This document shows, piece by piece, positions 1 through 64,000 of a stretch of 64,000 bases of DNA. Source of the DNA: Leucoraja ocellata (taxonomy: Eukaryota). The position numbers and the translations under genes are program-made. The stretch lies in the NCBI GenBank assembly GCA_036785375.1, contig JAWMAR010000016.1:7378001-7442000 (forward strand). The letters run 5' to 3'. Numbering within the stretch: position 1 is the first letter of the stretch; each line of letters opens with the position of its first letter. The notes under the pieces were generated by a model. It saw nothing but the letters and a program-made list of their open reading frames with translations. It searched no databases and was not told where the DNA came from.

Positions 1-299
1 TCTGTAAAATTGCCCCTAATCTGTAGGGAGTGGGTGAGGAAAGTGGGATAACAGATCTTGTGTGAATGGGTAGGCAAAAATCCTGGAGAAACTCAGCGAG
101 TGAGGCAGCATCTATGGAGCGAAGGAAATAGGTGAAGTTTCGGGTCGAGACCCTTCTTCAGACTGATGTGGGGTGGGGGTGGGGGGGGGGGGGGCAGAGG
201 CTCAAATCCTTCGATGTGCGCAATGATATGCTGTACATGTTTTACAATACTGTGGTTGCAAGTGTCTTTTTTACGCTGTTGTCTGCTGGGGCAACAGCA

Positions 300-743
300 T
301 CAGTGCGCAAAACAACAGGAAGCTGGACAAGGTGGTGAAACGGGCTTGCTCAGTGCTGGAGGGGAGAGTGGACTCTGATGGATGTGCTTGAGAGGTGTAT
401 GAGGCGCAAGGTGCAGGCCATCCTTGACAACTCTGGGCATCCACTCCATGTAATTCTGGAGAGTCAAAAGTGCACTCGGAACAACAACCGGCTCCTCTCC
501 CTGCCCTGTAGAACGGAGCGGTTCAGGAGATCCTTCACCCCTGCAGCCATTAGATTTTATAATACGGGGGATGCTTTTTGGATTTTTAAAAAATGGTTCA
601 TTATTGGTCTTTTTAAGTATTTATTGCTCTCGGGTATTGTCCACATTGTATTTTATGTATTTTCTGTCGGCGTTCATTTTGAATGTGTGGGTTTGTTGGT
701 TGGGGGCTTCTGGACCTGAATTTCCCTGAAGGGATCAATAAAG

Positions 744-745
<2 letters not shown>
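300..745 (+). mobile_element. Rex1/Babar-type LINE 3' fragment
   Basis: ILDNSGHPLH...RLLSLPCRTERFRRSFTPAAIR, then a 3' tail with AATAAA and (TAT)n. Confidence 0.75.

Positions 746-782
<37 letters not shown>
746..782. repeat. (TAT)n microsatellite (LINE tail)
   Basis: Directly visible. Confidence 0.95.
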
Positions 783-1045
783 GGGCAGCGGATGCAATAG
801 ATGAGGTTGGAGGAGCTGCAGGTGAACCCGCACCTGGAAAGACCGCTTGGGTCCTTGAATGGAGTCAAGGGGGAGGTAAAGCAACAAGTGTAGCATTTCC
901 TGCAGTTGCAAGGGAAAGTGCCAGGAGAGGGGGTGGTTTGGGTGGGAAGGGACGAATTGACCAGAGAGTCATGGAGGGAGCGGTCTCTGTGGAAAGCCGA
1001 CAGGGGAGGAGATGGGAAGATGTGGCCAGTGGTGGGATCCTGCTG
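782..1045 (-). mobile_element. Penelope-like element fragment (Cys-rich linker and start of GIY-YIG endonuclease)
   Basis: ORF 674..1081 contains FPSPPLSAFHRDRSLHDSLV...PGTFPCNCRKCYTC...FTCSSSNLIYCIRC, typical of the PLE linker and first GIY-YIG strand; adjacent to a pLTR-like unit. Confidence 0.85.
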
Positions 1046-1214
1046 GTAGACAAAGATGGAGAAAATCATCGGGTGAGGCATAATCTATGGAGCGAAGGAA
1101 TAGGCGACGTTTTGGGTCGAGACCCTTCTTCAGACTGATGTTGGGGGGGGGGGGGGTGCGGGAAAAGGAAAGGAAGAGGCGGGGACAATAAGTTGTGGGA
1201 GAGCTGGGAATGGA

Positions 1215-2770
1215 ATGGGATTCACCATCGTGGAGTTGGCCGGCTTCGGAGCGTGGAGAGCTGTGGTGGCGCGCGGCTGCGACCCGACATCGGAGCTTCG
1301 GAGGCTCCAGCCACAGGCTCGGTGGACGGTGACATCGGGAGCTCGAGGGTCCCTGGTGAGAGACCGCTTTTTGGAGCTTCCGCAACGGCAACTTCTCCCG
1401 CCCGAATTGCGGGGTTGAAAACGACCCGGAGCGGGGCCTTGCATCGCCTGGCGAGGTTTTAACGGCCGCGAGGCTTGCCAGCACCTGCCGGGTCTCCAAC
1501 ATCAAGACCCGGAGCAAGGCCTTAAGTCATCCGGTGCGGCCTTAACGGCCACAGGACTTGCCATCGCCCGCCGGGGGCTTTAACATCGGGAGAAGAATGG
1601 AAAACGGGGGAGAGACAATGACTTTGCCTTCCATCACAGTGAGGAGGAGTATCACTGTGATGGATGTTTGTGTTAGATTCAGATTCAGATTCAGATTCAG
1701 ATTCAATTTTAATTGTCATTGTCAGTGTACAGTACAGAGACAACGAAATGCATTTAGCATCTCCCTTGAAGAGCGACATAGCAAACGATTTTGAATAAAA
1801 ATAAATAAATAATAAGTGTCCGGGGGGGGGGGGGGGTGATTGGCAGTCACCGAGGTACGTTGTTTAGTAGAGTGACAGCGGCCGGAAAGAAGCTGTTCCT
1901 CGACCTGCTGGTTCGGCAACGGAGAGACCTGTAGCGCCTCCCGGATGGTAGGAGGGTAAACAGTCCATGGTTGGGGTGAGAGCAGTCCATGGCGATGCTG
2001 AGCGCCCTCCGCAGACAGCGCTTGCTTTGGACAGACTCAATGGAGGGGAGCGTGGAACCGGTGATGCGTTGGGCAATTTTCACCACCCTCTGCAATGCCT
2101 TCCGGTCGGAGACAGAGCAGTTGCCATACCATACTGTGATGCAGTTGGTAAGGATGCTCTCGATGGTGCAGCGGTAGAAGTTCACCAGGATCTGAGGAGA
2201 CAGATGGACCTTCTTCAGTCTCCTCAGGAAGAAGAGACGCTGATGAGCCTTCTTGATCAGAGTAGAGGTATTGTGGGTCCAAGAGAGGTCATCGGAGATG
2301 TTGACTCCCAGGAACCTGAAGCTAGAAACACGTTCCACCTCCGTCCCGTTAATGTGGATGGGGGTGTGCGTGCCGCCTCTGGACTTCCTGAAGTCTACAA
2401 TGAGCTCCTTGGTCTTAAGGGCCAGGTTGTTGTCAGCGCACCATGCTGCTAAGTGCTGGACCTCCTCCCTGTAGGCCAGCTCATCGTTGTTGCTGATGAG
2501 GCCAATCACCGTTGTATCATCTGCATACTTGATGATGGTGTTAGTACCATGTACAGGTGTGCAGTCATAGGTGAAGAGGGAGTAGAGGAGGGGGCTCAGC
2601 ACACAGCCCTGAGGAACGCCGGTGTTCAGGGTGAGGGTTGAAGAGGTGTGCTTGTCTAACCTCACAGACTGGGGTCTGTTGGTTAATTGTTTGTCTTGGG
2701 TTTTTTTCTTGTTGTAAAACTGCAGAAACCAAATTGAACTTCAAATGACAATAAATGGTATTGTATTGTG
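1215..2770 (+). mobile_element. GC-rich non-autonomous retroelement interrupted by the Rex insertion
   Basis: CpG-rich body (1215-1670) ends in cttccatcacagtgaggaggag...ggatgttt and resumes at about 2685 with the tail atgacaataaatggtattgtattg. Confidence 0.55.
1675..2680 (-). mobile_element. Rex1/Babar LINE, 5'-truncated (RT C-terminal part, ORF 1847..2665), (GAATCT)n tail
   Basis: GVPQGCVLSPLLYSLFT...KYADDTTVIGLI...KAHQRLFFLRRLKK; nested inside the GC-rich element at 1215-2770. Confidence 0.92.
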
Positions 2771-3637
2771 TTCCTGTCGTGACTGGGATAACAGCAACAC
2801 AATTCACTCTGAGCACAAGGTCTGTGGTAGATTGAATCTGGAATTTGTTGTGAACTGACTAAAGAAGGGTCCCGACCTGAAGCGTCATTTATGCATTCCC
2901 TCCGCAGATGCTGCCTGACCCACTGAATTACTCCAGCACTTTTGAGTTTTGCTCAAGAATCCAGCACCTGCTGTTTCTTGTGTTTGTCACAAACTGTGGT
3001 ACCACTTGCAGTGTATGAGATGCATCACACGAGGGTGGTGTTTCCATGCAGTGTATCCAATTCTGTGACTAATTTGCTGTTGCACGGAGTGAATGGGCAA
3101 CATTTTGCTTCATTGCGGCTTTGATTTGCTCCTACTCTAATCAACCTGAGCAAGCTCCTGTCTAATACCATCAAAGTAGGCCATGCCCCAAGTCAGAATT
3201 TTAACTTGTGGGCCCACCATGCCTTTATCCATAACTATTTTAAAGCTGATAAACAGTGGTTACTGGTCCCAATGTCATGAGAGCAGATCAAGCTTGCCCT
3301 CCCCTTTGTAGGACCCTCTACATATACCCTGAGGAAACCTCCCTGAACACATTTGACAAATTCCACTCCGTCTAAGCACTTGGCACTATGACAAACCCAG
3401 TCTATATTGGGAAAGTTAAAATCCCCTACAGTGACAACCTTATTAGTCGTGCAGCTGCCTGCAATCTCCTGGCATATTAGTTCTTATAATTCCTGTTTAC
3501 TATTTAGGGGGGTCTGTAGTACACTCCAACAAGGTGAGCATCCCCCTTTTATAGTTCAGCTGCACCCATACAACCTTCAGTAATGTCATTTTGGACAACC
3601 GCCATGGCATTCTCCTTAAAGCAACATTCTCCTCCCC

Positions 3638-4028
3638 AAATAGACACAAAATGCTGGGGTAGCTCAGCAGGACAAGCAGCATCTCTGGAGAGAAGGAATG
3701 GGTGACGTTTTGGATTGAGACCCTTCTTCAGACCGAGAGTCAGGGGAGAAGGAATCGAGCTATGGAGGGTAAGGTGCGAAAACGACAGATCAAAGGGGAC
3801 AAGGTTGAAGGAAAATGTATTTACCACTTCATTCCCTTTGATATCTCGTTTTCACATCCTAGCCTTCCATATCTCTTGTTTTCCTCTCCCCTGAATCTCA
3901 GTCTGAAGAAAGGTCTCGACACGAAACGTCACCCATTCCCTCTATCCAATGCTGCCTGTCCCGCCGAATTACTCCAGCATTTTGTGTCTTTCTTCGGTGT
4001 AAACCAGCATCTGCAGTTCCTTCCTGCA
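3638..4028. mobile_element. Palindromic Penelope pLTR-derived element
   Basis: Left arm is the reverse complement of the right arm (GACACAAAATGCTGG... / ...CCAGCATTTTGTGTC); hammerhead-like motifs on both strands (3704-3731 -, 3903-3930 +). Confidence 0.75.
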
Positions 4029-6492
4029 CCTCTTCTCTTCACCTCTCTTACCCCCAGGTCTATCTCTCCTGTAGCACCTGTACCCTGAAAGATGAAGCTG
4101 CCAGTCCTGTCCCTTTCTTAGCCAAGTGTCCATAACATCCACAGTCGCACGTACCTATCCATGCCCTGAGTTCATCTGCTTTACCCATCAGGCTTCTTGC
4201 ATTAAAATAAATGCAATCAAATCTGACAATCCTATCTTGCTCCATGCCATGCTCCCGTCTATTCTATCCACTGGCCATTCTTTCATCACCTTCCAGCCTC
4301 TCACCTGCATTGAAATCGACCCCCATACCCCCTTCCTTCTACCAATCTAGTTAAAACCCAACCCTGTAGCAATGAAAGGTTCCCAGTACTGTCAATGTTG
4401 TAGTGCTGTGGAAAGGACATTTTCTTTGTCAAGTTATATTGGGGAAATATTGTTGCATCAGTCACTGCTCTTTCAGTAGATGATCAGTAGGAATCTCTAT
4501 CCTTGTTACTTGTTTTACTGATAGTAAGACAGTAAATCTTACTCTAGTGGTGAGTTTGGGATGTTGCTTTGAGGAATTAATAAGGTGATGACCTGTTGAT
4601 GTATATCAGATTCTGAGAGGTATAAATAGGGTGGATAGTTAAAATATATTTCTTATGGCTGGGCCATCTAAAACAAGAGGGCATAGGTTTAAAGTGAGTG
4701 GCAGGGGATTTAAAGGTGGTCTTGGGGGTAAAGGTTTTTTTTACACGGTGTTTGATATGCGGAACTCACTGCCAGAGCAGGTGGTGGAATCAGATACAGT
4801 CAATATGTTTAAGAGGCATTTAGACAGACACTTAAATAGATAAAGTATGGAAGGTGATGGTCCTAATACAGACAAATGGGATTAGTGTAGATTGGCAAAG
4901 AGGTTTGGCATGGATGTGGGAGGTCAAATTGGCGTGCGATACTAAATGATCGAATGACACAAAGATAGTAATCAAGTTCAAGGGGAAAAGAGATCATCTA
5001 CTTTGATGGGGATACGTGGGGAATGTTGGTGAGCTGGAAAAATCTCATGGAGTTACTCCATTCCCTCTGCACATATCATTCACAGAGGACAGTGAACAAA
5101 GCAGAACTGTCACATCCAAAATGAAAATACTGATACTACTATTACTGTAGTAGTAAGATCGAGACAAATTAGATGCTATTGAGTTTATTAAGGCCAGAAC
5201 CAGTGATGGAGATGCTTATGTGTTGTAGGATTATTTGATCTGGCACTTTCAGAGATGTTCACAGTCACTTATTTGATGTAGGTCGGCATAGGCAAGATGG
5301 GCTGAAAGGCCTCTTTCTCTGCTACATCACTCTATTTGCAGCCAGGCGCCAAAACAAATGCTTAATGACAGTTTAAAGACAGTGGCTGGAAGCAGTAGCT
5401 CTCTGACCCTCGTGGACTGGGTTTGTTTGGTTTGCAGGCCGGCAAGACAAGCTGCTTGGCATATTGGAGGGGGTGAGCAGAATAGCCACGGCATGGAAAC
5501 TCTTTTGAAGAATGTGAAAGCGTTTTGCTCTGGACACAAGCATGAGGTGCAGGCTGGGAGCAAGTCTTGTGTTGGCAATGGCAGCACAATCTCCTTTGCA
5601 GATGCTTCCTAGAGATGCTACAAGTGATTTTGGTCTCCAGAGATGGGACGTTTGCAAGTCACGTGGGTACAACAGTGGCGGACCTTGCTATGGTCACAGC
5701 AGACGCCATGCGGCCTGAACTCCTACTCAGAATGTCCCTCTGTTTTAGTTATCACCGAACAGGGCATATTGCACATGTGCGCAAGCCCCAAAAGAAGGTA
5801 ACTGCATAGGGTGGTCCCCACTTGACCGAGATACCGGCGAGAAAAGGTGAAGAAAAAGTATGGATGGTCTGCCTTTGAAAGACCATTCATGCCCTGAAAT
5901 TGGAAAGCAGTCCGGCAGAGGCAGTCTAAAGGAAGAATATACCATCTGAAGTAGGAAGTGTGGAAATGTTTCTTGAAATGCAGGGATTTGTAGTGATGAC
6001 TGGTGCCGTGTTTGATTGCAAGAGTTGTGTATTACTTGTTGCAATTTTGGACGGACTGATATTGATTCAGATATATTGAAGCCAAGATGCAGAAAAGGAA
6101 GGTGAGATCCATGGTGGTAAGTGACAGGCGCTGCAAACCACTCAGAAAAAACAGCAAACAGTTCAGTCCGAAGAAGGGTCTCAACCCGAAATGTCACCCA
6201 TTCCTTTTCATCAGAGATGCCATTGCCTGTCCCACTGAGTTACTCCAGCTTTTTGTGTCTTTCTTCAGTTTAAACCAGCATCTGCAGTTCCTTCCTACAC
6301 ATTCCTAAACTGTTCAGATCTTGGGTTCAACCCCAGTTTGGTGCCCCATACTCCCAGTTCCCTCTTCCTTTACTTTCTCCTAGTCCAGGCCTAAAGGTCC
6401 CCAGCATTGATTGATTTCTGTTTTCCACAGAGAATCTGGTCAATGTTTCCAGTTTATTTTTGCACTTGTCGTCAGATTTCCAGCCAGATCCA

Positions 6493-7514: not shown

Positions 7515-7705
7515 AAAAAGGAATTGCAGATGCTGGTTTATACCAAAGATAGACAGAAGACGATGGAGTAACTCAGCGGGTCAGGCAGCATCTCTGGAGA
7601 GAATGCATGGTTGACATTTCAGGTTGGGACCCTTCTTCAGACCATCTATCCATTTTCTCCAGAGATGCTGCCTGTCCCGCTGAATTACTCCACCATTTTG
7701 TGTCT
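7515..7705. mobile_element. Palindromic pLTR-derived element
   Basis: Same family; inverted arms around a degenerate hammerhead motif. Confidence 0.65.
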
Positions 7706-9796
7706 AACAATGACAATCTTGCTTGTAGCAGCATCGCAGGCACAGAGTCTCAGAGAGCACACAAAAACATAAATGATACTTACATTTATAAATAAGGCAC
7801 TGTGCAGTTTGGGGGGACTGGTTGCCAAAGTCCAGAACTGTCTTGTAGCACAATGTGGCCAATCTGTAGATTAATAAGTTACTTCAGTTACTCATTTGTC
7901 CATTGGTGGGTTACATGCGTATACCTACCTATAGGAAGTCCATTTACTTGCTCAAAGAGTTTCGTACTTGATTGTTGGAACCAATTGCAATGCCCAGCTG
8001 GCAGGGATTGAACTTGAGATGGCTTGTCCAGGTTGTTCATGGAAATGTTAGGCTAGCAGGGATGAGCTAAACATTACACCAGCAATACTGCCCTAATTGG
8101 TGAGTCCCCAGTTATCGGCCACTGTAGTTTAGTTTATTGTCACGTGTATCGAGGTACAGTGAAATTGTTGCGTGCTATCCAGTCAGCAGAAAGACAATAC
8201 ACAATTACAATCGATCCAATTACAGTGTACAGATACATGATTGGGGAATACCTTTCAGTGCAATGTAAAGCCAGCAAAGTCCGATCCAGGAAAGTCTGAG
8301 GTTCACGAAAGAGCTAGATAGTAGCTCAGCACTGCTCACTGGTTGTGGTAGGATGATTCAGTTGCCTGATAACAGCTGGGAAGAAACTGTCCCTGAATCT
8401 GGAGGTGTGCGTTTCCACACTTCTCTACCTGTTACCTAATGGGGGAGGGGAGAACAGTCTATAGATGATAGATAATAGACCGCTTCCAGCATCTCAGCAG
8501 CCGTCTCTCAGTGAAGGCAGACCCTGATGATGAAAGGATGACCAAGGACGGTAGGGCTGTGTGGGAGGCCTGGCTAGTCCGCTGCACAACCGAGAAACCT
8601 GGCTGAAGAGGGAAGCCGCCGAGCCCGGCCCCTGAGCACCAGAGAACCGGAGAGGAGGCTGGAGGGAGTCGGCCATGACAAAGGGCTGGTGAAAGGAACA
8701 GGGCTCTTACCTTCCTCACCCTCAAGGTTGGCTGCAAGCGGCGCCCCTGGGGCTCGAAGGCTGAATGGTGGCCTGGCGAGGAGAGGGCCGATGGCTCGCT
8801 GGGTGATCTGGATGGAGATGACGGCTGCAACAAGACAATGTCAGCTGTAGCTTGGGCTTTGAAAATTGCACCAAACCTGGCGAGTCTTGTATATGGTCTC
8901 AGTCAGTCAGCTATTTCTATACAAGTGGTTTTGATCTGGGATTGTGCTTATGGTATAGTAATAATTTATTAACTGTATGCAAAAAAATTCACTGTACCTT
9001 GCTACATGTGATAATAAAGTAGCATTGAACCATTGAAATCTACCACCACTTTCAAAGAGCAGTGTGTGTGTATGTGTCTCAGTGTGTGTATGTGTGTGCG
9101 CATGCATAGTTAATTTATAGGTGGTAGACAAAAATGCTGCGGGTGCAGCAGCATCTATGGAGAGAAGGAAATAGGCAACGTTTTAGGCTGAAACCTTTTT
9201 TCAGGTTGTATGCAATTCATAGTTGATTTAGTTAATTGAGAAAAATGTATTTGAAGATCGAGACCACATCTGAAATGAAGGTTTTCTACTGGGCTGCCGT
9301 GATCCCTGCCCTGCCCCATGCTTCTGAGACCTGGAATATACACAGCAGGCATCTCAAAACACACATGCTCTGTTATGAATGAATGAATAAGTTTATTGGC
9401 CAACTATTCACATACAAGGAATTTGCCTTGGTGCTCTGCCCGCAAGTGACAAAATGACATGCAGTGACAGTTACGAATGAATTAGCAGGGAATGGGATGG
9501 ATAACAGTTATGGGAAGGAATTAGCAGGGAAACAGTGAAAAAGATTCAAGATTGTACACAAAGCTTCCTTGAGAATACCTGAGAATCCCTGACCCAGAGT
9601 GGAAAAGAAACATTAGGGATGACGTTGAGATCTTGAGGCCATTCATTGGGAGCACATGAATGTCCTGTGTTAGCACGAGCCCCACAAACTACCCAGTCAC
9701 TATTTCCCATAGCCACCTCCTGCCCCATCTGGGGAAGAGTCTCTGGCTCTTACATTGACCTCGAAACCTGCAGAACCAGAATGGAAGCAAACCAAA

Positions 9797-13020: not shown

Positions 13021-13238
13021 TGTAGGAATGAACTGCAGATGCCTGATTAAACCAAAGATAGACACAAAAAGCTGGAGTATCTAAGCGGGTCAGACAGCAT
13101 CTCTGGAGAAAAGGAATAGGTGACTTTTCGGGTGGAGACCCTCTCAGTCTGAAGATGGGTCTCGGCCTGAAACGTCACTTATTTATTTTCTCCAGAGATG
13201 CTGCCTGACATGCTGAGTTACTCCAGCTTTTTGTGTCA
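13021..13238. mobile_element. Palindromic pLTR-derived element inserted in an HE1 SINE
   Basis: Inverted arms; hammerhead motif at 13149-13176; SINE sequence resumes on both sides. Confidence 0.7.
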
Positions 13239-13437
13239 ACCTACAAACCTGTACGTATTTGGAGTGGGAGGAACTGGAGCACCCGGGGAAGACCAACGCC
13301 ATCCCATTTGTACGTCCGATACAACCCTACATCACACGTCATTCACAACATAACCACACCACATTAAGAGCATTGCTGAAGAAAGTAGACACAATTAATA
13401 GCAATGACCATGACTGGAACCTCTTGAGACAACTAAT

Positions 13438-14365: not shown

Positions 14366-14716
14366 TGTAGGAAGGAACTGCAGATGCTGGTTTACACCGA
14401 AGATAGACACAAAATGCTGGAGCAACTCAGCGGGACAGGCAGCATCTCTGGATAAAAGGAATGGGTGATGCTTTGGGTCAAGACCCATCTTCAGGCTGAG
14501 AATTAGGGGTCAGGGAAATGAGAGATATGGAAGGTAAAGTGTGAAAATGAGACACCAAAGGAGACAAAGGGGAAAAGACTCTACATTTTCCTTGATCTTC
14601 GTCCCCCTTTGATCTCTCAGTCTGAAGAAGGGTCTCGACCCGAAACGTCACTCATACCTTCTATCCAGAGATGTTGCCTGTCCCGCTGAGTTACTCCAGC
14701 ATTTTGTCTCTATCTC
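14366..14716. mobile_element. Palindromic pLTR-derived element in APOBEC2 intron 1
   Basis: Inverted arms with a degenerate - strand and an intact + strand hammerhead. Confidence 0.75.
14622..14649 (+). ncRNA. Minimal hammerhead ribozyme motif (intact core) in a Penelope pLTR-like repeat
   Basis: CTGAAGA, A, stem II GGGT-CTCG-ACCC, GAAAC, GTC cleavage triplet. Palindromic ACGT stem III; 3-bp stem I (agt 14619-14621 with act 14650-14652). Confidence 0.75.
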
Positions 14717-15034
14717 CCGTAAAACCTAAGCTGCGCTGCGCAGTTTAAGATTCTTGCAAAGGTAATCCACCGCTATCACATTGCCAACTCGACTATTATC
14801 CTTCTTTCCTATCTCAATATCAACTGCACCTATACCCTCACGATCAGCCTCATGGGTTGGATTGCGCCACTCGCTTCTTCCCTCAGCGACTGCAGTACTG
14901 GTGTCTACATTGCGTCGGCATGTTGGGAAAGAGGAAAACTTAGATACAAATCAGACCAAAAACAGCTATAGGTTGAATGACCAATGCTACAGTATTGATA
15001 AAGGGATGATGGAAATAGGTGATATTTAGCCAGG

Positions 15035-16469: not shown

Positions 16470-16513
<44 letters not shown>

Positions 16514-16563: not shown

Positions 16564-16574
16564 GAGTATGTATT

Positions 16575-17339: not shown

Positions 17340-18295
17340 TGAGTTATATATTAATGATTTAGAAGATGGGATTAAAAGTAACACTAGCAAATTTGCAGGT
17401 GACACAAAGCTGGGTGGCAATGTGAACTCCGAAGAGGATACAAGGAGGTTGCAGGGTGACTTGGACAGGTTGAGTGAGTGGGCAGATGCATGGCAGACGC
17501 AGTATAATGTAGATAAATGTGAGGTTATCCACTTTGGCAGCAAGAACAAGGTGGCAGATTATTATCTCAATGGTGTCAGATTAGGAAAAGGACAAGTGCA
17601 ACAAGACCTGGGTGTCCTTGTACCGGTCACTGAAAGTAAACATGCAGGTAAAGCAGGCAGTGAAGAAAGCTAATGGCATGTTGGCCTTCATAACGAGAGA
17701 ATTTTAATGTCGGAGTAAAGAGGTCCTTCTGCAGTTGTACAGGGCCCTGATGAGACCACATCTGGAGTATTGTGTGCAGTTTTGGGCTCTTAATTTGTGG
17801 AAGGACATTCTTGCTATTGAGGCAGTGCAGGTTCACAAGGTTAATTCCAGGAATGCGGGACTGTTATATGAGGAAAGATTGGAAAGACTGGACTCGTATT
17901 CACTTGAATTTAGAAGGATGAGAGGGAATCTTATAAAATTATAAAAGGACTGGACAAGCAAGATGCAGGATAAATGTTCCCAATGTTGGGAGAGTCCAGA
18001 ACCAGTGCCACAGTCTAAAAATAAAGGGGAGGCCATTTAAAACTGAGATGAGAAAGAACTTTTTCACCCAGAGAGTTGTGAATTTGTGGAATTCTCTGCC
18101 ACAGAAGGTGGTAGAGGCCAATTCGATGGATGAATTAAAAAGAGAGTTAGATAGAGCTCTTGGGGCCAGCGGAATCAAGGGATATGGGGAGAAGGCAGGC
18201 ACGGGTTATTGATTGTGGATGATCAGCCATGATCACAATGAATGGCGGTGCTGGCTTGGACAAATGGCCTCCTCCTGCGCCTACTTTCTATGTTT
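17340..18295 (+). mobile_element. CR1 LINE 3' fragment
   Basis: YINDL...SKFAGDTKLGG...[11 protein letters not shown] and a CR1 3' UTR. Confidence 0.92.
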
Positions 18296-19449: not shown

Positions 19450-19645
19450 GTTTAAGAAGGAACTGCAGATGCTGGAAAATCGAAGGTACACAAAAATGCT
19501 GGAGAAACTCAGTGGGTGCAGCAGCATCTATGGAGCGAAGGAAATAGGCAACGTTTTGGGTCTGAAGAAGGGTTTCGGGCCTATTTCCTTCGCTCCATAG
19601 ATGCTGCTGCACCCGCTGAGTTTCTCCAGCATTTTTGTGTACCTT
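19450..19645. mobile_element. Palindromic pLTR-derived element (second subfamily)
   Basis: The same peptide-like string (QQHLWSEGNR) appears in ORFs on both strands, reflecting near-perfect inverted arms. Confidence 0.7.
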
Positions 19646-20479
19646 CCCTCCAAACCTTTTTTAGACTGAGATGTAGTCTGTGGTCATTCTTGGCAAATGT
19701 CAGTTTGGGTCCATTACTCATTTTTAATTTTATAAATTGAGGTTTTCAGGATTATGAGATGGTTGACAGGGTAGGTAAAGAAAAACCATACCTTCTGGGA
19801 ATTGGTCAGCTACTTGAGATCATAGATTCTAAAACCTTGGGAAAAGATCTTCTTGAGAACAGGATTTTACTTTTTAGCTGCTTCAGAGACCCTGAGAAAC
19901 ATGGTTGATCCTAATCTTAGGTGTTGTGTCAGGTTCACCTTGTGACAATGTTGGTTTCTCACAGGGGCTCCGCTTTCCCCAGCCCAGATCCCAAATACAT
20001 GGAGATTGGTGGGTTGATTGTCTCTATTATGTATGTGAGTGTCAGAACCCGAGGGAGTTTGTGGGAATGTAGAGATAATGCAAAGGGAATAGTGTAAGTA
20101 GTGCAAGTTGATGGTTGGCATGGATTTTGTGGGCTGAAGGGCCTGTTGTGCTGTTCCATTCTGTAATTCCTAGTATAAACATACGGGAAAGTATTTTAAA
20201 AGTGTGATAAAATGCTGTTCAGAATGAGAAGTTTACAGGCAAGGGGGAAGTGGGGATGTTGAACTAAATATTATTGTTTATCCAAAGGGCCAATACAGGC
20301 ACATTGGGTAAAATAGACTCCTCTGTGAGATTTTTGAGCTTAGTACTTCAGTGTTGTCTTTCAGTTTTGTTCAACGTAAATGCTACAAAATTCAGTGTAC
20401 CGGAAATTGGAGTGTGGTGCTGGTTATGTGTCCTCCTCAATTCAACACATGAACAAAAAGATATCATTGTAAATTGGTG

Positions 20480-21228: not shown

Positions 21229-21500
21229 TGTTCTAGACCTGTGAGAACTCTCCATGCTTGCGGCACTGCTCCATGCATGTGATGTTTCTCCAGCTGCCTG
21301 CCACTTCTCCAGGCCTGTAACATTGCTCCTGGCATGTGGTGTTTCTCCACATGCATGGCACTTCCCCAGGCCCATGAGGTTGCTCAAGGCTTGTGAGGTT
21401 GCTCCAGATGCATGCCACTTCTCCAGGCTCATAAGCTTGCTGTGATGCTTCTCCAGGTCTGTGATATTGCAGACCCATGAGAATGCTCAAGGCACATCCC
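21229..21500. repeat. Degenerate 19-bp minisatellite with 57-bp higher-order period
   Basis: Successive units tgctccatgcatgtgatgt, ttctccagctgcctgccac, ttctccaggcctgtaacat, tgctcctggcatgtggtgt, ttctccacatgcatggcac... Confidence 0.8.
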
Positions 21501-23803: not shown

Positions 23804-23942
23804 TAGAAGATATTGGATTAATTAACTTATAGGAAAGAGGAGTCATTTTTTTATTGGCAAGCATTTAGCATTTAAATTGGTTGTTTGATTAAGACATCTT
23901 ATTTTGTTCATGCCAATAACATATGCACCTTCTAATTTCCAG

Positions 23943-44404: not shown

Positions 44405-44790
44405 AGAGGAAGGAACTGCAGATGCTGGTTTACACCGAAGATAGACATAAAATGCTGGAGTAACTCAGCGGGACAGGCAGCATCTCTGGAGAGAAGGAAT
44501 GGGTTTTGAGTCAGACTGAGAGGCAGGCGAGAGGGAAACTAGAGATATGGAAGGGTACAAAGAGCAGGTAAGGTGTGAAAAGGACAGAACCAAGAATGAT
44601 CAAGGAAATATACAAAGGTTCAACATTGGCTGAGGAGAAGCCGACAACGAGGCAAACAGTAAAATTAATCAGGAGGACAATGAATCTGGTAGGATAACTA
44701 GGGTGGGAGAGGGACAGAGAGAGGGGGAAAGCAAGGGTTACAAAGTTATAGAGAAATCAATATTCATACTGTTGGATTGTCAGGTATGTA
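44405..44790 (-). mobile_element. Penelope 3' end with pLTR-like unit, inserted in a Tigger-like relic (about 44313-44852)
   Basis: Minus strand near 44750-44785 encodes degenerate ...SMNIDFS, the GIY-YIG C-terminus, followed by the family repeat. Confidence 0.6.
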
Positions 44791-45057: not shown

Positions 45058-45260
45058 TTAAGAACTGCAGAAGCTGGAAAAATCGAGGGCAGACAAAAAT
45101 GCTGGAGAAACTCAGCGGATGAGGAGCGAAGGAATAGGTGATGTTTTGGGTCGAGACCCTTCTTCAGATTGAAGAAGGGCCTCGACCTGAAACGTCACCT
45201 ATTCCTTCGTACTATAGATGCTGCCTCACCCTCTGAGTTTCTCCAGCATTTTTGTCTACC
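45058..45260. mobile_element. Palindromic pLTR-derived element with back-to-back hammerhead motifs
   Basis: Motifs at 45140-45167 (-) and 45169-45196 (+) abut at the palindrome centre. Confidence 0.7.
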
Positions 45261-45341
45261 CAAGAATTTGGATTGACGTTTTAATGCCAAAACAACATGC
45301 ACATTCAAGCGGTGAAAAGTAATTATGCTTTAGTTTCTTAC

Positions 45342-48379: not shown

Positions 48380-48640
48380 GTGTAGGAAGGAACTGCACTG
48401 AGGTTCTGGTTTTCACCGAAGATAGACACAAAATGGTGGAGTAACGCAGCGGGACAGGCAGCATCTCTGGAGAGAAGGAACGGGTGATGTTTCAGGTCGA
48501 GACCCTTCTTCAGACATATCTCTCGTTTCCCTCTCCCCTGACACTCAGTCTGAAGAAGGGTTGCGACCCGAAACATCACCCATCCCTTCTGTCCAGAGAT
48601 GCTGCTGTCCCACTGAGTTACTCCACCATTTTGTATCTTC
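48380..48640. mobile_element. Palindromic pLTR-derived element in the OARD1 CpG region
   Basis: Motifs at 48486-48513 (-) and 48550-48577 (+). Confidence 0.7.
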
Positions 48641-48920
48641 ATCTTCTTGATCCGCGGTGACGGGGTCACTACTTCGTGGAGCCAGGGAACGGGCTCCATC
48701 CATCTTGCCCACAGTTATCGTGTGAGAGCTAACTTTGTTGTATTTTTTTAATTTCGTTCACTTAGTTTTTTTTTTGTTTTTTAAACGCGTCGATTATTCC
48801 CGACCGAAGATAAGACGCAAAACATGCTGGAGTAACTCAGCGGGACAGGCAGCATCTGTGGAGAGAAGGAATGGGTGATGGTTGGGGTGTAGAGTCTTGG
48901 TCAGAGTCGGTGCTTCTTAC

Positions 48921-52394: not shown

Positions 52395-52959
52395 TGTCAG
52401 TTGATGCCCACTAGAGGTAACATGATCAACTCCTTGCTTCTTTTTTTCTAAATAAATATTGGAATTAAAGTGAAAACAATGATTAACTACCTGTTTGCAT
52501 TCCACGTGTATCTGCTGTATCTCCCCTTGAAGACATTGTCTCACATAGGTATATAGAGTCGAATATTATGTACGTAAAGCGTGTAGATTTTCCTGTAAGA
52601 TCATCTTGGGACTCATCTTGAATCGTTGCAATTATAACAAAGATTTGAATCTGAACCGTCTGCTTTTTTTTTTTTAGTTTTAATGCTAAACTATGTGTGG
52701 ACTTAGTGGGGGAAAACATTTGTGAATGTTATTCCAAAGCAATGTTGCGGTGCATATTGATTGTGCATGCTATGAGATTTTTGTGTACCATGTGCTAAAA
52801 CATTCAATGCATTGTATCTCCATTGTTAGTTTTATTAAATTGATATTTGGTGAAACGTTCTGTTTGTTACTTGCCTTATTAAAGAGGAATGTTCTTCCTA
52901 GCAATAGGAAAAACCTGGCAAAACCACAAAAGTGAACAAATATAAAATCCTCGAAACAT

Positions 52960-53500
52960 GCAGCACAGAAATGGAAGATGCTGGAGTAACTCAGCGGGTC
53001 AGGCAGCATCCCTGAGATGGATAGGTGATGTTTTGGGTTGGGCCCCTTCTTTAGACTGATTGAAGGGGTGGGGGGAAAGAAAACTAGAAGAGTGGAATGG
53101 CAGGATAATTCAGAGCTGATCAGAGGAGAACACAGGTGAGGGGGGTTCTTGAAAGGCAGATGGTTGGACGAAGGCCAGAAATGAACACACACAAAGTGTG
53201 AGACAAAAGGATGAGAGTTGCGAATTGTGTAGCTGAAGGGAAGAATGCTGAGGGGGAGGAAGAGAAAGATAGGTGTTAGATTATCCAGGGCTCAGAGGAG
53301 GGAGGGGGAAAGAAAGGGATAGCTTACAACCCAACGCACTAACGTTGAATTCTCCAATTTTTAATAAATTACAAAACACCCCTCCCCTTCCCCTTTCTCC
53401 CCATAAACCCCCTTTCTTCGCCCTCCCCTGAGCCCCAATTGATCTTTCTCTTTCCTTCACTTCCCGACTATCTCTTTCCTTCCCTTCCCAACTACAACGC
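52960..53500. mobile_element. Two opposed Penelope 3'-end fragments
   Basis: pLTR-like unit on -; + strand near 53320-53365 encodes SLQPN..NVEFSNF, the GIY-YIG C-terminus. Confidence 0.6.
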
Positions 53501-55194: not shown

Positions 55195-57415
55195 ACAGAT
55201 GATTCTGAACTTAAAGAAAGGTAACTTTGAAGGTATGAGACGTGAATTGGCCAAGATAGACTGGCAATTGATTCTTAAAGGGTTGACGGTGGATATGCAA
55301 TGGAAGGCATTTAAAGACTGCATGGATGAACTACAACAATTGTTCATCCCAGTTTGGAAAAATAATTAATCAGGGAAGGTAGTACATCCGTAGATAACAA
55401 GGGAAATCGGGGATAGTAGCAAAACAAAAGATGAAGCATACAAATTAGCCAGAAAAAGCAGCCTACCAGAGGACAGGGAGAAATTCAGCAGAGGAGGACA
55501 AAGGGCTTAATTAGGAAAGGGAAAATAGATTATGAAAGAAAACTGGCCTGGAACATAAAAACTGACTGCAAAAGTTTTTATAGATATGTGAAGAGAAAAA
55601 GATTAGTTAAAACAAATGTAGGTCCCTTGCAGTCAGAAACAGGTGAATTGATCGTGGGAAACAAGGACATGGCAGACCAATTGAATAACTACTTTGGTTC
55701 TGTCTTCACTAAGGAAGACATAAATAATCTGCCGGAAATAGAAGGGGACCGGGGGTCAAATGAGATGGAGGAACTGAGTGAAATCCAGGTTAGCCGGGAA
55801 GTGGTGTTAGGTAAATTGAATGGATTAAAGGCCGATAAATCCCCAGGGCCAGATAGGCTGCATCCCAGAGTACTTAAGGAAGTAGCCCCAGAAATAGTGG
55901 ATGCATTAGTGATAATTTTTCAAAACTCTTTAGATTCTGGAGTAGTTCTTGAGGATTGGAGGGTAGCTAATGTAACCCCACTTTTTAAAAAGGGAGGGAG
56001 AGAGAAAATGGGGAATTACAGACCAGTTAGTCTAACATCGGTAGTGGGGAAACTGCTAGTCAGTTATTAAAGATGGGATAGCAGCACATTTGGAAAGTGG
56101 TGAAATCATTGGACAAAATCAGCATGGATTTATGAAAGGTAAATCATGTCTGACGAATCTTATAGAATTTTTCGAGGATGTAACTAGTAGAGTGGATAAG
56201 GGAGAACCAGTGGATGTGTTATATCTGAACTTTCAGAAGGATTTCAACAAGGTCCCTCATAAGAGATTAGTATACAAACTTAAAGCACACGGTATTGGGG
56301 GTTCAGTATTGATGTGGTTAGAGAACTGGCTGGCAGACAGGAAGCAAAGAGTAGGAGTAAACCGGTCCTTTTCAGAATGGCAGGCAGTGACTAGTGGGGT
56401 ACAGCAAGGCTCAGTGCTGGGACCCCAGCTATTTACAATATATATTAATGATTTGGACGAGGGAATTGAATCCAACATCTCCAAATTTGCGAATGACACG
56501 AAGATGGGGGGCAGTGTTATCTGTGAGGAGGATGCTAGGAGGCTGCAAGGTTACTTGGATAGACTGGTGAGTGGGAAAATGCATGGCAGATGCAGTATAA
56601 TGTGGATAAATGTGAGGTTATCCACTTTGGTGGCACAAACAGGAAAGTAGACTATTATCTGAATGGTGGCCGATTAGGAAAAGGGGAGATCCAAAGAGAC
56701 CTGGGTGTCATGGTACACCAGTCATTGAAAGTATTCATACAGGTACAGCAGGCAGTGAAGAAAGCGAATGGTATGTTAGCATTCATAGCAAAAGGATTTG
56801 AGTATAGGAGCAGGGAGGTTCTACTGCAGTTGTACAGGGTCTTGGTGAGACCACACCTGAGTATTGTGTACAACTTTGGTCTCCTAATCTGAGGAAAGAC
56901 ATTCTTGCCATAGAGGGAGTACAGAGAAGGTTCACTAGACTGATTCCTGGGATATCAGAACTTTCATATGAGGAAAGACTGGATAGACTCGGCTTGTACT
57001 CGCTAGAATTTAGAAGATTGAGGGGGGATCTTATAGAAACTTACAAAAGTTACAAAATTCTTAAGGGGTTGCACAGGCTAGATGCAGGAAGATTGTTCCC
57101 GATGTTGGGGAAGTCCAGAACAAGGGGTCACAGTTTAAGGATAAGGGGGAAATCTTTTAGGACCGAGATGAGAAAAAAAAATTTCACACAAAGTGTGGTG
57201 AATTTCTGGAATTCTCTGCCACAGAAGGTAGTTGAGGCCAGCTCATTGGCTATATTTAAGAGGGAGTTAGATGTGGCCCTTGTGGTAAAGGTATTAGGGG
57301 GTATGGAGAGAAGGGAGGTACAGGATACTGAGTTGGATGATCATATAGAAAGGCGATGCAGGCTCGAAGGGCCGAATGGCCTACTCCTGCACCTATTTTT
57401 TATGTTTCTATGTTT
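55195..57415 (+). mobile_element. CR1 LINE, about 2.2 kb, frameshifted ORF2
   Basis: KSPGPDRLHPRVLKE, NYRPVSLTSVVGK, QHGFMKGKSCLTNL, YINDL, RPHL and a 3' tail. Confidence 0.95.
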
Positions 57416-57937
57416 CAATGATGGTTTGTACACAGGATTGTTTCGGGGCTGCTTAGATACATACTAATTTTAGAACAGAAAGAGGTATTGTAGAACAATC
57501 TAGTCCCATTCTCAGTAGCCTTGTAAATTAATTTCCACAAATGCCAAACCAATTTATTTTTTAAAAAAAGATTGACATTCCATTGGCTTTATTGCCTCCA
57601 GATCATGATCATTCTCTGCTTAAAAAAAAGTTTTCCTTGCTGAACAAAAATTTGTTCTATGCCTGCATTTTATCACCTTCGAGAGATCAATTACAGAAGT
57701 TTGCAAATAATTTTAATCAACAGGAACACAACTTAAAAATTGAGAACTTGGTTTTCCCCTCTGCCTTCCAATTTTGAACTTGGCAGATGGTGGAATCTGA
57801 AAGAATCTGAAACCATTTCAATGCTTTGTATTCACCGAAGGACTTAGATTGACAGGTATAAAGGGAGACTATTTAATTATCATTACAGACAATTCATTAG
57901 TGTTTGAAAACTGGAACTGTCAGAAAAATGAGCTTAC

Positions 57938-58082: not shown

Positions 58083-59214
58083 CTAATGTAGAGCAAATAT
58101 GAGTAGTGTAGACTGATGATGGACAAAGATTGCAGACAGAAACAAGGAGGTTAGGGTGTAAGATGGAACTAAACATAGAAAAGTAGAGCACATGGGGCAG
58201 GACCTTCGACCCACAATGTCTGTGCTGAACTTAATGACAAGATAAACTAATCTCACCTGCCTACACATGACCAATATTCCTCCAATTCCAGAATATCCAT
58301 GTGCCTGTCTAAAAGCCCCTTGTATCTGCCTTCACCACCATCCCTGGCAGTACGTACCAGGCACCCACCACTCTCTGTGTAAAAACACTTGCCCTGCACA
58401 TCTGCTTTAAACTACCTCTTTCTCCTTAAACATATGCCCTCAAGTCTTTGTCATTTTCACCCTGGGAAACAGGTTCCACTGTCTACCCTATCTTTGGTTC
58501 CGATAATTTTTACATCCAGGACTTTCATCAGGTTTCCTCCGGTGTACAAGAATCCAGATTTTCCTTTGGAATTTGCCTGGGGTGGAGTGAGCAGGATTGA
58601 AGGATTGAGGGAAAGTGTACGGGCTAAAGATGAGGGATGATGGGGTTGCAGCTGCATGGTGGGAGAGGACGAGAGAATCAAATTAGTAATGAAGAGGTAC
58701 TGTATCATTAATGTTTCTCATGCTTGTTGTTCAGTTCCACACTGCGCAGTGAATTAATTTCTGTGAATCAGTTCCACACTGCACAGTGAATCAGTCTGAA
58801 GAAGGGTTTTGGCCCGAAACGTTGCCTATTTCTTTCGCTCCACAGATGCTCCATCAGGGACTGGATTGTTTTTTTAGTGTTATTATGTGTGAAGTGTTTT
58901 AAATTTCATGTGCGAGGCTCCGCTATTCACTGGGAAACGTCTTTTCATTTTGCACTGTACTTGTTGCTTGCAAGATGACAATAAAGGTTGATTGATTGAT
59001 TGATTGATGCTGCTGCACCCGCTGAGTTTCTCCAGCACTTTTGTCTACCACAGTGAATTAATTATTTGCCCATTAGGGGGAGCTCTAATACTAATTGTGG
59101 CAGCCACCTCTCTCTTGGATACGCTCTGATCCCTTTAACTAGCTGACAGGCAGGATGGGAGATTGCAACCTTCACCCTGTTTCGACAAATGCAATCAACC
59201 TGGCGTGCACAATC

Positions 59215-60200: not shown

Positions 60201-60414
60201 GATAAGATCAAATAGAACAAGTTGTCCTACAACTTTAGTCTGTGCACGCCATACACAAGAAGAAGAAGCTGACAAGCCAGGAGGGGCCAAATCCCCAGCA
60301 TCATTGGTGACAGCTCAGGCCAATTAGCTGATCTTGGTCAGCCACTTGTACCTTGTCAGCCTATGGCTAGAATGTCTGGGTTCTATAGGGAGTGCGAGGA
60401 AGAGAGACAAAAAG

Positions 60415-60788
60415 GGCTTATACTCACGGGAGTTTAGAAGAATTGGGGTGACCCCATTTAAACATACAGAATAGTGAAAGGCTTGAATAGAGTGGATGTG
60501 GAGAGGTTGTTTCCACTAGTGGGAGAGTCTAGGACTAGAGGCCATAGCCTCAGAATTAAAGGACATTCCTTTAGGAAGGAGATGAGGAGGAATTTCTTTC
60601 GTCAGAGGGTGATGAATCTGTGGAATTCTTTGCCACAGAAGGCTGTGGAAGCCAAGTCTGTGGATATTTTTAAGGCAGAGATAGATAGATTCGTGATTAG
60701 TACGGGAGTCAGAAGTTATGGAGAGAAGGCAGAAGAATGGGGTTAGGAAGGAGAGATAGATCAGCCATGATTGAATGGCAGAGTCGAC
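60415..60788 (+). mobile_element. CR1 3' fragment
   Basis: ORF 60474..60746: ESRTRGHSLRIKG...QRVMNLWNSLPQ. Confidence 0.88.
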
Positions 60789-60789
60789 T

Positions 60790-62115
60790 TAATTTTTTAA
60801 TTTTTTTTTTAAAATTTCAAAATAGACTTTATTCAATTGATCAATATATACAATTCATGAACCATTCGAACAAAAAAATTCATCCGACATTTTCGGAGAC
60901 TATACAAATTTTTTTCAGTACAATATTTTTACATTTGTCAAATTCCACCAAAACTGTCCCCCACCCATGCCACTCTGTGGCCCCTGTCCAAGTAATAAAT
61001 ATATACAATGTGTGCACAGCGCGAAAATTCCATCCGACATTTTTGTAGGCTATAGAGATTGTTCAATACAGTTTATGTCTTTTAAATTCCACAAAAATGT
61101 CCCCCACCCGTGCCACTCATGTGGCCCCCTGGCGTGGGATACCTTCCCCTAATTTAATTTGAGGGGCGTCTCCACCATACCGTGCCCCCCATGTCCAGCA
61201 GCAGAAGGATCCTAGACTGTGGCCCTCCCCCACCGAGCCTTGGCGTTGGCTGCACTAAGCTTCAGCGAGCCCCTTAGCACATACTCCTGCAGTCTGCAGT
61301 GGGCCAGTCGGCAACATTCCCTGACGGACATCTCGCTCTGCTGGGTGGTGAGCAACGCTCGGGCAGACCAAAGAGCGTCTTTCACCGAGTTGATGACCCT
61401 CCAGCAGCTCTCGATGTCAGCCTCTGAATATGTCCCTGGGAACAGTCCGTAAATCACAGAGTCCTCTGTGACGGAGCTGTTCGGGATAAATCGTTCCAGG
61501 GACCCTTTCATACTTCTCCAGACTCTTTTTGCAAATCCACACTCTGCAAAGAGGTGGGCAACCGTCTCCTCTCCATAGCAGCCGTCCCGAGGGCAGCGTG
61601 CGCTGGTAGTGAGTTTCCGGCGGTGCAGGAAGGATCTAACTGAGAGGGCTCCCCTCAACGCCAGCCAAGCCAGGTCTTGATGCTTGTTGGTCAGTTCTGG
61701 CGATGAGGCATTTTGCCAGACAAGCTGGGCAGTCTGCTCTGGGAACCACGCCACCGGATCCATCGAGTCCTTTCCCTGCAGTGCCTGCAGGACATTCCAT
61801 GCTGACCACTGCCTGATGGACTTGTGGTCAAAGGTGTTGGTCCGGAAGAACCTTTCCACAGATGACAGATGGGGCGGCAATGTCCAGCTGACTGGCACAT
61901 TGCGTGGCATCTGCGCCAGGCCCATCCTTCGCAACACTGGGGACAGGTAGAACCTCAGCAGGTAGTGACACTTAGTGCCCACGTGCCTTGGCTCTACACT
62001 CCGCCTGATGCAGCCACACACAAAGGTGGCCATCAGGATGAGGGCGACGTTGGGCACGCTTTTACCCCCGTTGTCTGCCGACTTGTACATTGTGACCCGT
62101 CGCACCCGGTCCATC
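60790..62115 (-). mobile_element. L1/Tx1-clade LINE 3' fragment with 3' UTR and A-rich tail
   Basis: ORF 61212..62117: GGKSVPNV..., CPRDGCYGEETVAHLFAEC (C-terminal zinc knuckle). Confidence 0.88.
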
Positions 62116-62937
62116 AAATAAGATCAAATAGAACAAGTTGTCCTACAACTTTAGGCTGTGCACGCAAGAAGCAGAAGAGACCCACTGAGTTACTCCAGCA
62201 TTTTGTGTCTATCTTTCCCCTATACGTGGTGTTGTTTTATATCTCAGCCTTTTCAAAACAATGCTTTCTGTGCTCTTATATATGGCAGTAATGATGCCAT
62301 TGGTTTCCCCTTATTCCATCAGGACTTTAATCCAAGGTGCAGGAATTACCATCTTGAATTCAGCTGCACCCCTTCAACGTGAAAACAGGTTTTCTCTGTT
62401 TCCCACTGAGGAATCTGACCATCTCTAGATTAATTTACTCGGAGTGAATTTACATAATATTTACTTATGTAGTTTTGGCATCGATGCGATCAAACCACAC
62501 CTTTTCCAGGAAACAATGTGACAAATATCTGATTGTTCCCGTGTATGACTGGTTCTGCAGATATATTTCTACAAAGCCCGACATTGATTGTAGCTCCACA
62601 GTCCCTGTGGCTGAGAAGTAGTTTGAACGTGAAGCTCAAGCAGATTCCATTTCCCTGTTTTAAAGTCATGCAGTGATAATAATGTCCTAATTACCCTAAA
62701 TAGTGCGCCTAATTTTGGGCTTGGTTCCCTGGCAAGTGATCATTTACCAATTATTGAATCGTGGCCTTGCACATGCCACATGCCACCTGCTTATCTGTTT
62801 AATGTGCTGTGGCATTCAGTCTTTGAATATTTTTATGGCTGAGGGAGAAGCTATTCTTGATGACTAAGGTGCCAAAAATTTGCCAGGAAAAGGAACGACC
62901 GTGGAACTCATCTTACAGCCAATTCAGCCATAACGTT

Positions 62938-63132
62938 ATTGAAGATAGACACAAAAAGCTGGAGTAACTCAGCGGGACAGGCAGCATTTCTGGAGAGAAG
63001 CATCTCTGAAGAAGGGTCTCGACCCGAAACGTCACCCATTCCTTCTCTCCAGAGATGCTGCCCGTCCCGCTGAGTTACTCCAGCTTTTTGTGTCTATCTT
63101 CGGTTTAAACAAGCATCTGCAGTTCCTTCCTA
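62938..63132. mobile_element. Palindromic pLTR-derived element
   Basis: Near-perfect inverted arms flanking an intact hammerhead core. Confidence 0.75.
63006..63033 (+). ncRNA. Minimal hammerhead ribozyme motif (intact core)
   Basis: Identical 28-mer CTGAAGAAGGGTCTCGACCCGAAACGTC at the centre of a fold-back repeat. Confidence 0.7.
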
Positions 63133-64000
63133 CAAATAACTTTATTGAATGCTGCAGCATTGTCAATGGGCCCGTTCTTGCTCCAAATGTATACGTTTTT
63201 ATACTTCTATGTCTTTGAAACCTCTCTATTTCTTTTCTTGATGAAGAACACTGACATCTTTCTGTACAAGTGAAAAATGTTCATGTTTCCTTTTTTGAAG
63301 AAGGTTTTTCAACCCATCTAGTTCATGCTAGCTACTAGAGCAATCCCATTCTCCTATTCTTTCCCTGCAACCTACTCTCTCCTCTGTGTGCTCATCATCT
63401 CCACCTGATTTAGTTACCACTTACCAAAACTATGGGTAAAAAGACACAAAGTGCTGGAGTAATTCAACAGGTTAAGCAGCATCTCCAGAGAACATGGAAA
63501 GGTGATGTTTTGGGTTGTTACCCTTCTTCAGACAGATTGTTGAGGGGTGGAGGGAGTAGAGGTGGGAAGAAAGCTGGAACAAGAGGAGGGGCAGGTCAAG
63601 GCCTGGAAGATAATGGTTGATGCAGGTGAGGGGTGTGTTTGATTGGTATTTGATTGGTCAAAAGCCAGAGATCAAAAGGCAGAACGTGTGATACAGAAGG
63701 ATGGGAAAAGTTGTGAAATGTGGTTGTATTAGGTAGTTTAGTTTAGTCTAGTTTATTTTTTTGTCATGTGTCATAGATGCGTTTATTATCATAGATGCGG
63801 TCAAAACTTTTGTCAGCGGAAAGACGACACATGAGTCCAATCAAGTCTTCCACAGTGTGGACACACGATAAAGGGAATGATGTTTAGTGCAAGATAAAGT
63901 CCGATTAAACATAGTCTGAGGCTTCCAAGGAGGTAGTAAAAGGTAATTTACAGTTTCCAGTTAATCTACACAACTGGATGTTTCTGGATATAAGATTAAA

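Follow-up and report, generated by a model that had tools for sequence, protein, structure and literature searches.

The pseudo long terminal repeats (pLTRs) of Penelope-like elements (PLEs) are a known location of minimal hammerhead ribozymes (min-HHRs; PMC4209133), and the pLTR of Penelope itself holds an internal promoter made of an initiator (Inr) and a downstream promoter element (DPE) (PMC2377424). A CX2-5CxxC linker is common to the Neptune and Nematis groups (PMC8557442), and only Neptune and Poseidon have been found in vertebrates (Li et al. 2026, bioRxiv 10.64898/2026.07.22.740005). For PAc, the Poseidon element of Anolis, unprocessed RNA is the main template (PMC11167929). Retrozymes without long terminal repeats (LTRs) also carry hammerheads (PMC7229834), and elements of this sort have been reported in one chondrichthyan (Li et al. 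2026). Here we analyse a window of 64,000 nucleotides (nt) from the skate Leucoraja ocellata (contig JAWMAR010000016.1, positions 7,378,001 to 7,442,000), in which an earlier note had recognized short repeats with a hammerhead motif and had proposed an independent, non-autonomous family processed by the ribozyme. We conclude that the repeats are very probably 5'-truncated insertions of autonomous PLEs, generated by priming at two leader sites and often stopping before the hammerhead.

The intact element and the short copies

The hammerhead motif was matched 22 times in the window (at most 7 mismatches from either of two window copies), compared with a mean of 0.01 and a maximum of 1 in 100 block-wise Markov shuffles. 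The recurrence of about two dozen copies is thereby confirmed, and for all eleven sets of coordinates in the earlier note the motif was present at the place and on the strand given. A profile derived from the copies delimited 37 repeat pieces (3,483 bp). The motif is recurrent, as had been claimed, but the true unit is not its 28 nt: it measures ~105 nt, with the hammerhead at its head and an optional tail of ~35 nt. Rfam at its gathering score gave no match for the window's hammerhead repeats. Core, stem II and palindrome are jointly kept in 5 of the 22 window copies and in 28 of 149 copies from a genome sample consisting of 60 stretches of 10 kb (600 kb) located at round-number coordinates of large contigs.

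Many repeat copies are preceded by the C-terminal end of a GIY-YIG endonuclease. Within the window, the adjacency of GIY-YIG fragments to some copies was found at one locus (1045-722, minus strand), and the window holds no other fragment of a Penelope open reading frame (ORF). A genome search with this fragment produced 57,406 candidates; the repeat lay 600-650 nt past the start of the linker in 22 of 30 linker-picked loci. Many of the best 150 matches to an N-terminal piece of the ORF were near-identical, with open frames of 1,233 codons, and several recurred at a period of 3,946 bp. (A DNA search for the ORF start was discarded, the match being an unrelated repeat.) Intact 3,946-bp units are arranged in tandem, nearly identical to one another, and the repeat marks every junction, 114 nt past the stop codon, which identifies the repeats as the Penelope pLTR, as had been suspected. 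Each unit runs from TCAGT through hammerhead, leader and tail to an ATG at +164, an ORF of 1,221 amino acids (aa), a 114-nt untranslated region (UTR) and the next TCAGT. The tandems include 5'-truncated upstream units, the partial-tandem arrangement of pLTRs. The active unit carries the GUU motif; this second subfamily (GGGT-TTYG-GCCC with GTT), correctly recognized in the earlier note and present at 58796 (plus) and 31471 (minus), is the youngest family.

The ORF shows the motifs DKG and YIDD, a CX4CxxC linker (CGRSRCNTC at aa 1088) and LIY..YIG in a C-terminal GIY-YIG domain. Pfam matches were RVT_1 (E = 1.6e-6) and GIY-YIG (E = 0.013), both below the curated cut-off. Named homologs from Chiloscyllium, Rhincodon, Mobula and Hypanus (65-73% identity) carry PF00078 and some of them PF01541, in keeping with the cartilaginous fish host previously proposed. 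A PDB sequence search with the part spanning reverse transcriptase (RT) and endonuclease (EN) gave no matches, and no relative with DNA sequence was confirmed among metagenome contigs. Judged by its sequence, the element is an EN+ Penelope-like retrotransposon. It is likely of Neptune type, an assignment made by linker motif and exclusion rather than from a tree, because the linker is that of Neptune and Nematis and vertebrates are reported to hold only Neptune and Poseidon. Mobilisation by a Penelope protein, as earlier proposed, is supported. In the ORF of locus L246, aa 160-500 form a long proline-rich region with variable short repeats, which recalls the variable inserts in rotifer Penelope ORFs; unit lengths differ among copies (3,946 versus 3,985 bp).

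The 3.44-Gb assembly contains 15,546 exact matches to one 31-mer of the repeat and none to its reversed control, and the search for the core suggested by the earlier note returned 88,829 exact matches to a degenerate pattern of core, stem II and NUH. The genome sample contained 303 repeat pieces (4.2% of bases), 149 of them with the core region: 16 linked to the endonuclease, 28 with shared UTR, 44 inverted-adjacent and 61 solo. Extrapolation gives roughly 850,000 core-bearing copies. The start of the window is duplicated at near identity 0.7 Mb away (C16:7378848 and C16:8076069) and many other loci are paired; the assembly probably keeps both haplotypes, and all genome copy counts are inflated because of these duplicated loci. 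The hammerhead count in this species is high and not unique, with up to 120,000 reported in axolotl (PMC7229834).

The origin of the short copies was analysed in the young family, represented by 79 arms picked by an anchor downstream of the predicted cut site (6,925 anchor matches genome-wide). These arms came from contigs C1 and C2 exclusively (the first 30 loci plus another 40 stretches). Counted from the C of CUGA, 42 arms end at +94-96, 30 at +125-137 and 7 elsewhere; the two clusters, with fixed ends at +94/95 and +129-131 (~35 nt apart), are common to short and long copies. Target-site duplications (TSDs) of 7-17 nt flank 24 of 36 simple insertions, which are therefore fresh insertions and not leftovers of recombination. 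All 14 head-to-head pairs analysed combine one short and one tailed end, each with a TSD of 13-17 nt. The variant T125A is present in 12 of 48 short arms and 7 of 31 long arms, and no variant marking a short-only lineage was found among the 79. Upstream extensions of all lengths were found in the genome sample, continuous into 3' UTR and endonuclease. No tandem array of short hammerhead units exists in the window, and the 600 kb contain no short head-to-tail hammerhead array (4 arrays of period at least 80, none overlapping a core-bearing copy). Insertions do not end at the predicted cut site, nor do they mostly begin there.

The proposal of an independent family was thus not upheld, since the short copies agree with the autonomous element in sequence, down to its polymorphism, their extensions are continuous and short arrays are lacking in the 600 kb. 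The contrary case foreseen in the earlier note, in which the copies are truncations of autonomous PLEs, largely holds, except that many short copies share a defined 5' end, given which solo copies may be re-mobilised. Among ~65 young insertions, three pairs of different structure occupy the same or nearly the same position in a long interspersed nuclear element (LINE) (L289/L294, L303/L326 and L301/L320); these are possible target hot spots.

Copies and other features in the window

The pLTR copies and the Penelope ORF fragment of the window are as follows.

68-167, minus: copy with core 134-161, passenger in the fragment of a presumably hAT-like composite transposon (window 1-1220)
722-1045, minus: sole Penelope ORF fragment of the window, broken; RT-EN linker with CX4CxxC and start of GIY-YIG
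1038-1139, minus: copy with core 1106-1133, G12 lost; its junction to the linker has 327 exact matches genome-wide
2854-2955, plus: old solo copy with decayed core (profile match)
3627-4008, both strands: head-to-head inverted pair with 3' UTR between cores 3704-3731 (minus) and 3903-3930 (plus)
6162-6279, plus: solo copy with tail, core 6168-6195 (motif and profile matches)
7532-7712, both strands: inverted pair, core 7613-7640 (minus; profile match)
9116-9208, minus: decayed solo copy (profile match)
13041-13251, both strands: inverted pair, core 13149-13176 (plus) intact
14385-14728, both strands: inverted pair with UTR, core 14622-14649 (plus) intact
19476-19652, both strands: inverted pair carrying internal deletions (profile match)
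31395-31499, minus: solo copy of the GUU subfamily, core decayed (motif match)
33092-33206, minus: copy with ~180 nt of shared 3' UTR upstream
41746-41859, minus: solo copy with tail, adjoining a LINE fragment
44424-44512, minus: copy without most of the core, UTR upstream (profile match)
45079-45272, both strands: fold-back pair joined at the TCAG/CTGA palindrome, cores 45140-45167 (minus) and 45169-45196 (plus)
48405-48645, both strands: inverted pair, cores 48486-48513 (minus) and 48550-48577 (plus)
52954-53061, minus: old copy with ~260 nt of older 3' UTR upstream
58789-58870, plus: interrupted copy of the GUU subfamily, core 58796-58823 intact; further 3' pLTR piece at 59006-59053
62934-63114, both strands: inverted pair, core 63006-63033 (plus) intact
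63434-63538, minus: old copy with ~185 nt of older 3' UTR upstream

The fixed junction of the 1106-1133 copy to the linker was considered as part of a 730-nt retrozyme unit. This candidate was rejected because the junction is located in a patchwork of 3-3.8 kb with terminal inverted repeats and target duplications. In the patchwork, two nested terminal-inverted-repeat elements that start with CAGGG (target duplications of 5-6 nt for the inner and 8 nt for the outer element; loci L166-L185) enclose a portion of the endonuclease and as many as four pLTR pieces. Window 1-1220 is a piece of this non-autonomous DNA transposon, of which at least 327 copies exist genome-wide, and two of the window copies are its passengers.

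The window likely also holds the host APOBEC2 gene, judging from an exon-sized open frame at 23920-24477 (plus) that matches APOBEC2 (Pfam PF18772, E = 1.6e-59). A broken Tc1/mariner transposase (PF01498) lies at 36900-37940 (minus), and LINE fragments of at least three families (RVT_1 and zf-RVT matches) lie at 17345-18295, 29790-31073, 34947-36075, 56108-57416, 1847-2740 (minus) and 61212-62123 (minus). A degenerate 57-bp tandem repeat (3 x 19 bp) at 21267-21493 has open frames on the minus strand.

The 5' end, the hammerhead and rival explanations

Among simple insertions, truncation was most frequent at -5 to +4, at 3.7% per nt, compared with 0.25% near the cut site and 0.08% in upstream sequence (12 events per 321 nt versus 7 per 2,525; P = 1e-7, for an interval chosen after seeing the data). 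The pile-up falls on TCAGTC, a site invariant in all nine subfamily consensuses (clusters built from downstream columns only) while the upstream UTR turns over. TCAGTC matches the Inr consensus TCAKTY (PMC1538597), and +28 to +32 from the A reads CGTYR, i.e. four of the five letters of the DPE RGWYV; both motifs are short, derive from Drosophila and were compared post hoc. We put at about even the chance that the pile-up marks a transcription start on TCAGTC. It may otherwise reflect stalling before a C-rich tract or, for the inverted junctions only, fold-back at the TCAG/CTGA palindrome. In poly(A) and single-cell reads, which come from fragmented libraries dominated by passenger copies and possibly from another organism, depth was continuous across the cut site without a pile-up of ends. 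Splicing at the pyrimidine-CAG before the core was also considered: copies starting there share no upstream exon, and no such joint was seen among the 15 of 159 joints listed. About 850 reads per run (X23 and X24) share one foreign sequence just before AG-TCTGAAG, at L246:6867, and represent either one highly expressed copy-bearing transcript or splicing from a host exon to the CAG in front of the hammerhead, used as acceptor.

The consensuses resemble the published min-HHR, as the earlier reading of a minimal type I core with a palindromic ACGU implied. CUGANGA, GAAA, UH, the extra base after A9, G10.1-C11.1 and the palindrome at 15.2-16.2 are all present in 8 of 9, the exception being an old cluster in which G12 was lost by CpG change. 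TCAGT, CUGAAGA, GGGU and ACGU are fixed across the nine, loop II varies and H17 is C or U only. Pairing of stem II is preserved between subfamilies, as stated before, but by a one-sided change (U-A to U-G) and not a compensatory one; each of the four substitutions seen in helices I and II affects one side of a pair, which persists as G-U. The conservation signal of the core is modest, since fixation also extends to 38 of the 70 columns downstream. Helix I comprises 2 adjacent pairs, a 2x2 loop and 2-3 further pairs, short of the 4-5 bp of the min-HHR; helix II has 4 bp, and helix III cannot close in a monomer. Any self-cleavage would occur as a dimer, for which the folding energies are unfavourable: in calculations without tertiary terms or a positive control, the dimer fold of the active sequence reached -3 to -4.5 kcal/mol versus -25 to -38 for the best co-fold, with the core predicted to be inaccessible in the naked RNA. 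In head-to-head pairs the motifs lie on opposite strands and are unable to form a dimer in cis. G12 belongs to a CpG and has mutated in 32% of 117 sampled copies, similar to the 28% at other CpG sites, so the dispersed copies are not kept for cleavage. The predicted cut site is crossed by 71 of 79 young arms, and in full-length loci 16 of the 17 leaders found continue beyond it into the unit before; the template RNA was therefore uncut or re-joined. The leader also contains an invariant structure (L246:6917-6985, plus strand), in which a GCUGAG-NNN-CUCCAGC hairpin, variable in its loop, is enclosed by AGAUGCUG paired with CAGCAUCU of the tail; this structure is likely the protein-binding and priming site.

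In the explanation we favour, the RT/GIY-YIG protein would start reverse transcription at either leader site, 67 or 102 nt past the predicted cut, and cDNA synthesis would often halt at the likely RNA 5' end, just before the hammerhead. Inverted pairs would arise when both target strands are nicked and both sites primed, for which an anole element provides in vitro precedent (PMC11167929). The copied RNA would be uncut at the hammerhead, or re-joined; the hammerhead would be kept in source lineages, cleaving at most weakly, as a protein-assisted dimer in tandem transcripts, and the dispersed copies would decay neutrally. Several observations weigh against this explanation or its parts. Five arms start at +29 to +33 and none at +28, an excess over +34 to +66 (P = 0.016) and none over +5 to +23 (P = 0.79); these starts would allow for a minor fraction of cleaved RNA. 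No RNA start was observed in the raw RNA reads, whose fragmented libraries cannot show one. Direct upstream Penelope sequence was not detected in 105 of the 149 sampled copies (70%). Older subfamilies are rarely endonuclease-linked (1/67 versus 11/66, Fisher P = 0.002; cluster 2, 0/21; cluster 3, 3-5/86) and may have had an ORF-less source, or their age and longer UTR may account for this (UTR ~300 nt, 20% divergence; one cluster-6 copy reaches the end of the endonuclease by translation). Finally, Neptune membership depends on the linker motif.

It seems highly improbable that the repeats form an independent family, similar to short interspersed nuclear elements (SINEs) or retrozymes, in which Penelope protein reverse-transcribes, in trans, short RNAs that are either hammerhead cleavage products or transcripts of solo copies. 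Such a family would fit the 61 solo copies among 149, the short class with a defined 5' end (-5 to +4), the presence of both priming sites and the initiator-like motif in solo copies, the ability of rotifer pLTRs to act in trans (PMC3846280) and the rare endonuclease linkage of old clusters. It is at odds with the lack of short-only variants in the young family and of any tandem array of period at least 80 over a core-bearing copy in 600 kb, with copy ends that do not match the cut site, and with the finding that the sole multi-hammerhead family with a fixed junction is DNA-transposon cargo. Another alternative concerns the mechanism and not the identity of the repeats: the hammerhead would be active in vivo, cutting tandem transcripts into 3,946-nt monomers that are ligated to circles and copied round, with the pile-up as a stall. 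The same model has been put forward for min-HHRs (PMC4209133); near-identical units share private variants (G1619A in 3/3 units at C8, G3195A in 2/2 at L258), insertions often exceed one unit, and core and stem II are kept across the nine consensuses while loop II varies. Yet array C265 has differing units, template jumps or read-through of a uniform tandem yield the same arrays, the dimer fold lies at least 20 kcal/mol above the best co-fold (tertiary contacts excluded) with only 2 adjacent pairs in helix I, and cleavage is dispensable for insertion of the anole element in vitro (PMC11167929). We consider this mechanism quite unlikely.

The motif might instead no longer cleave, and be conserved through overlap with the element's core promoter or a protein-binding site. 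The invariant Inr-like TCAGTC below a UTR that turns over, the DPE-like CGTYR, the 38 invariant downstream columns and the predicted hiding of the core in naked RNA would all agree with this. We find it rather unlikely, given that all four helix I/II substitutions keep G-U pairing, that loop II is free and H17 only C or U, that in the anole element a similar hammerhead becomes active on addition of protein (PMC11167929), and that the promoter motifs have the weaknesses noted above. In a further reading, less likely than not, the stretch of 33 bases between the start of TCAGT and the cut site would serve as hammerhead and core promoter at once (Inr with a DPE-like motif at +28 to +32); leader priming on capped mRNA would then yield a run-off cDNA of 100-135 nt, resembling retroviral strong-stop DNA, that is inserted directly, folds back to form inverted pairs, or switches to the 3' pLTR and thereby builds partial tandems. 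If this is true, hundreds of thousands of solo copies would be ready-made cassettes of promoter and priming sites, and a potential origin of SINEs and retrozymes.

Comparison with described elements

No description of this repeat family in skates, sharks or other cartilaginous fish was found in the literature searched, although Repbase or Dfam may hold it, and cartilaginous fish were absent from the searched portions of PMC4209133. The kind of element is already known and its main value is practical. The skate genome offers many intact, near-identical units, probably of Neptune type, and thousands of very young insertions in which priming sites, target duplications and points of truncation can be read at single-base resolution. 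Two open questions, the role of the pLTR hammerhead and the formation of partial tandems, are thereby made testable. The pLTR, at ~4% of sampled DNA, could moreover supply promoters and splice acceptors in large numbers.

With the min-HHRs of metazoan PLE pLTRs (PMC4209133), the skate repeats share the core, the extra base between 9 and 10.1, G10.1-C11.1, the palindromic 15.2-16.2, the absence of helix III in the monomer, the location in the pLTR and the dispersal of most copies, ascribed there to truncated elements. They differ in a helix II of 4 bp and a helix I nearer to the 2-bp variant of D. virilis than to the usual 4-5 bp. The 88,829 skate matches compare with 4,000 in coelacanth and 9,000 in Xenopus, the skate count having been obtained by a different method and from an assembly that contains duplicated loci.

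Like the EN+ PLEs Neptune and Nematis (PMC8557442, PMC3846280), the skate element has a single ORF with RT and C-terminal GIY-YIG, a CX2-5CxxC linker, partial tandems, an inverted 5'-truncated partner, a one-sided tail of 30-40 bp and an Inr-like motif in the pLTR. It is distinguished from them by its 1,221-aa ORF, whose N-terminal part is long and rich in proline, by an ATG after the tail and not within the pLTR, and by the sharp 5' pile-up at the hammerhead edge. In PAc (PMC11167929), too, two internal priming sites define the tail, both target strands are extended and most templates are unprocessed RNA; this Poseidon element, in contrast, lacks the zinc-finger linker and its ORF starts in stem II, and the skate element is known from sequence alone. 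Non-LTR retrozymes (PMC7229834) resemble the skate repeats in their type I hammerhead, kinship with pLTRs and dispersed monomers without ORF. Retrozymes, however, form head-to-tail arrays of 150-450-bp units with canonical hammerheads, whereas skate copies are solo or head-to-head and extend upstream to variable lengths into the ORF. In the DNA sampled, the repeats form neither short-unit tandems, as non-LTR retrozymes do, nor, in the young family, a lineage of their own, as a SINE would.

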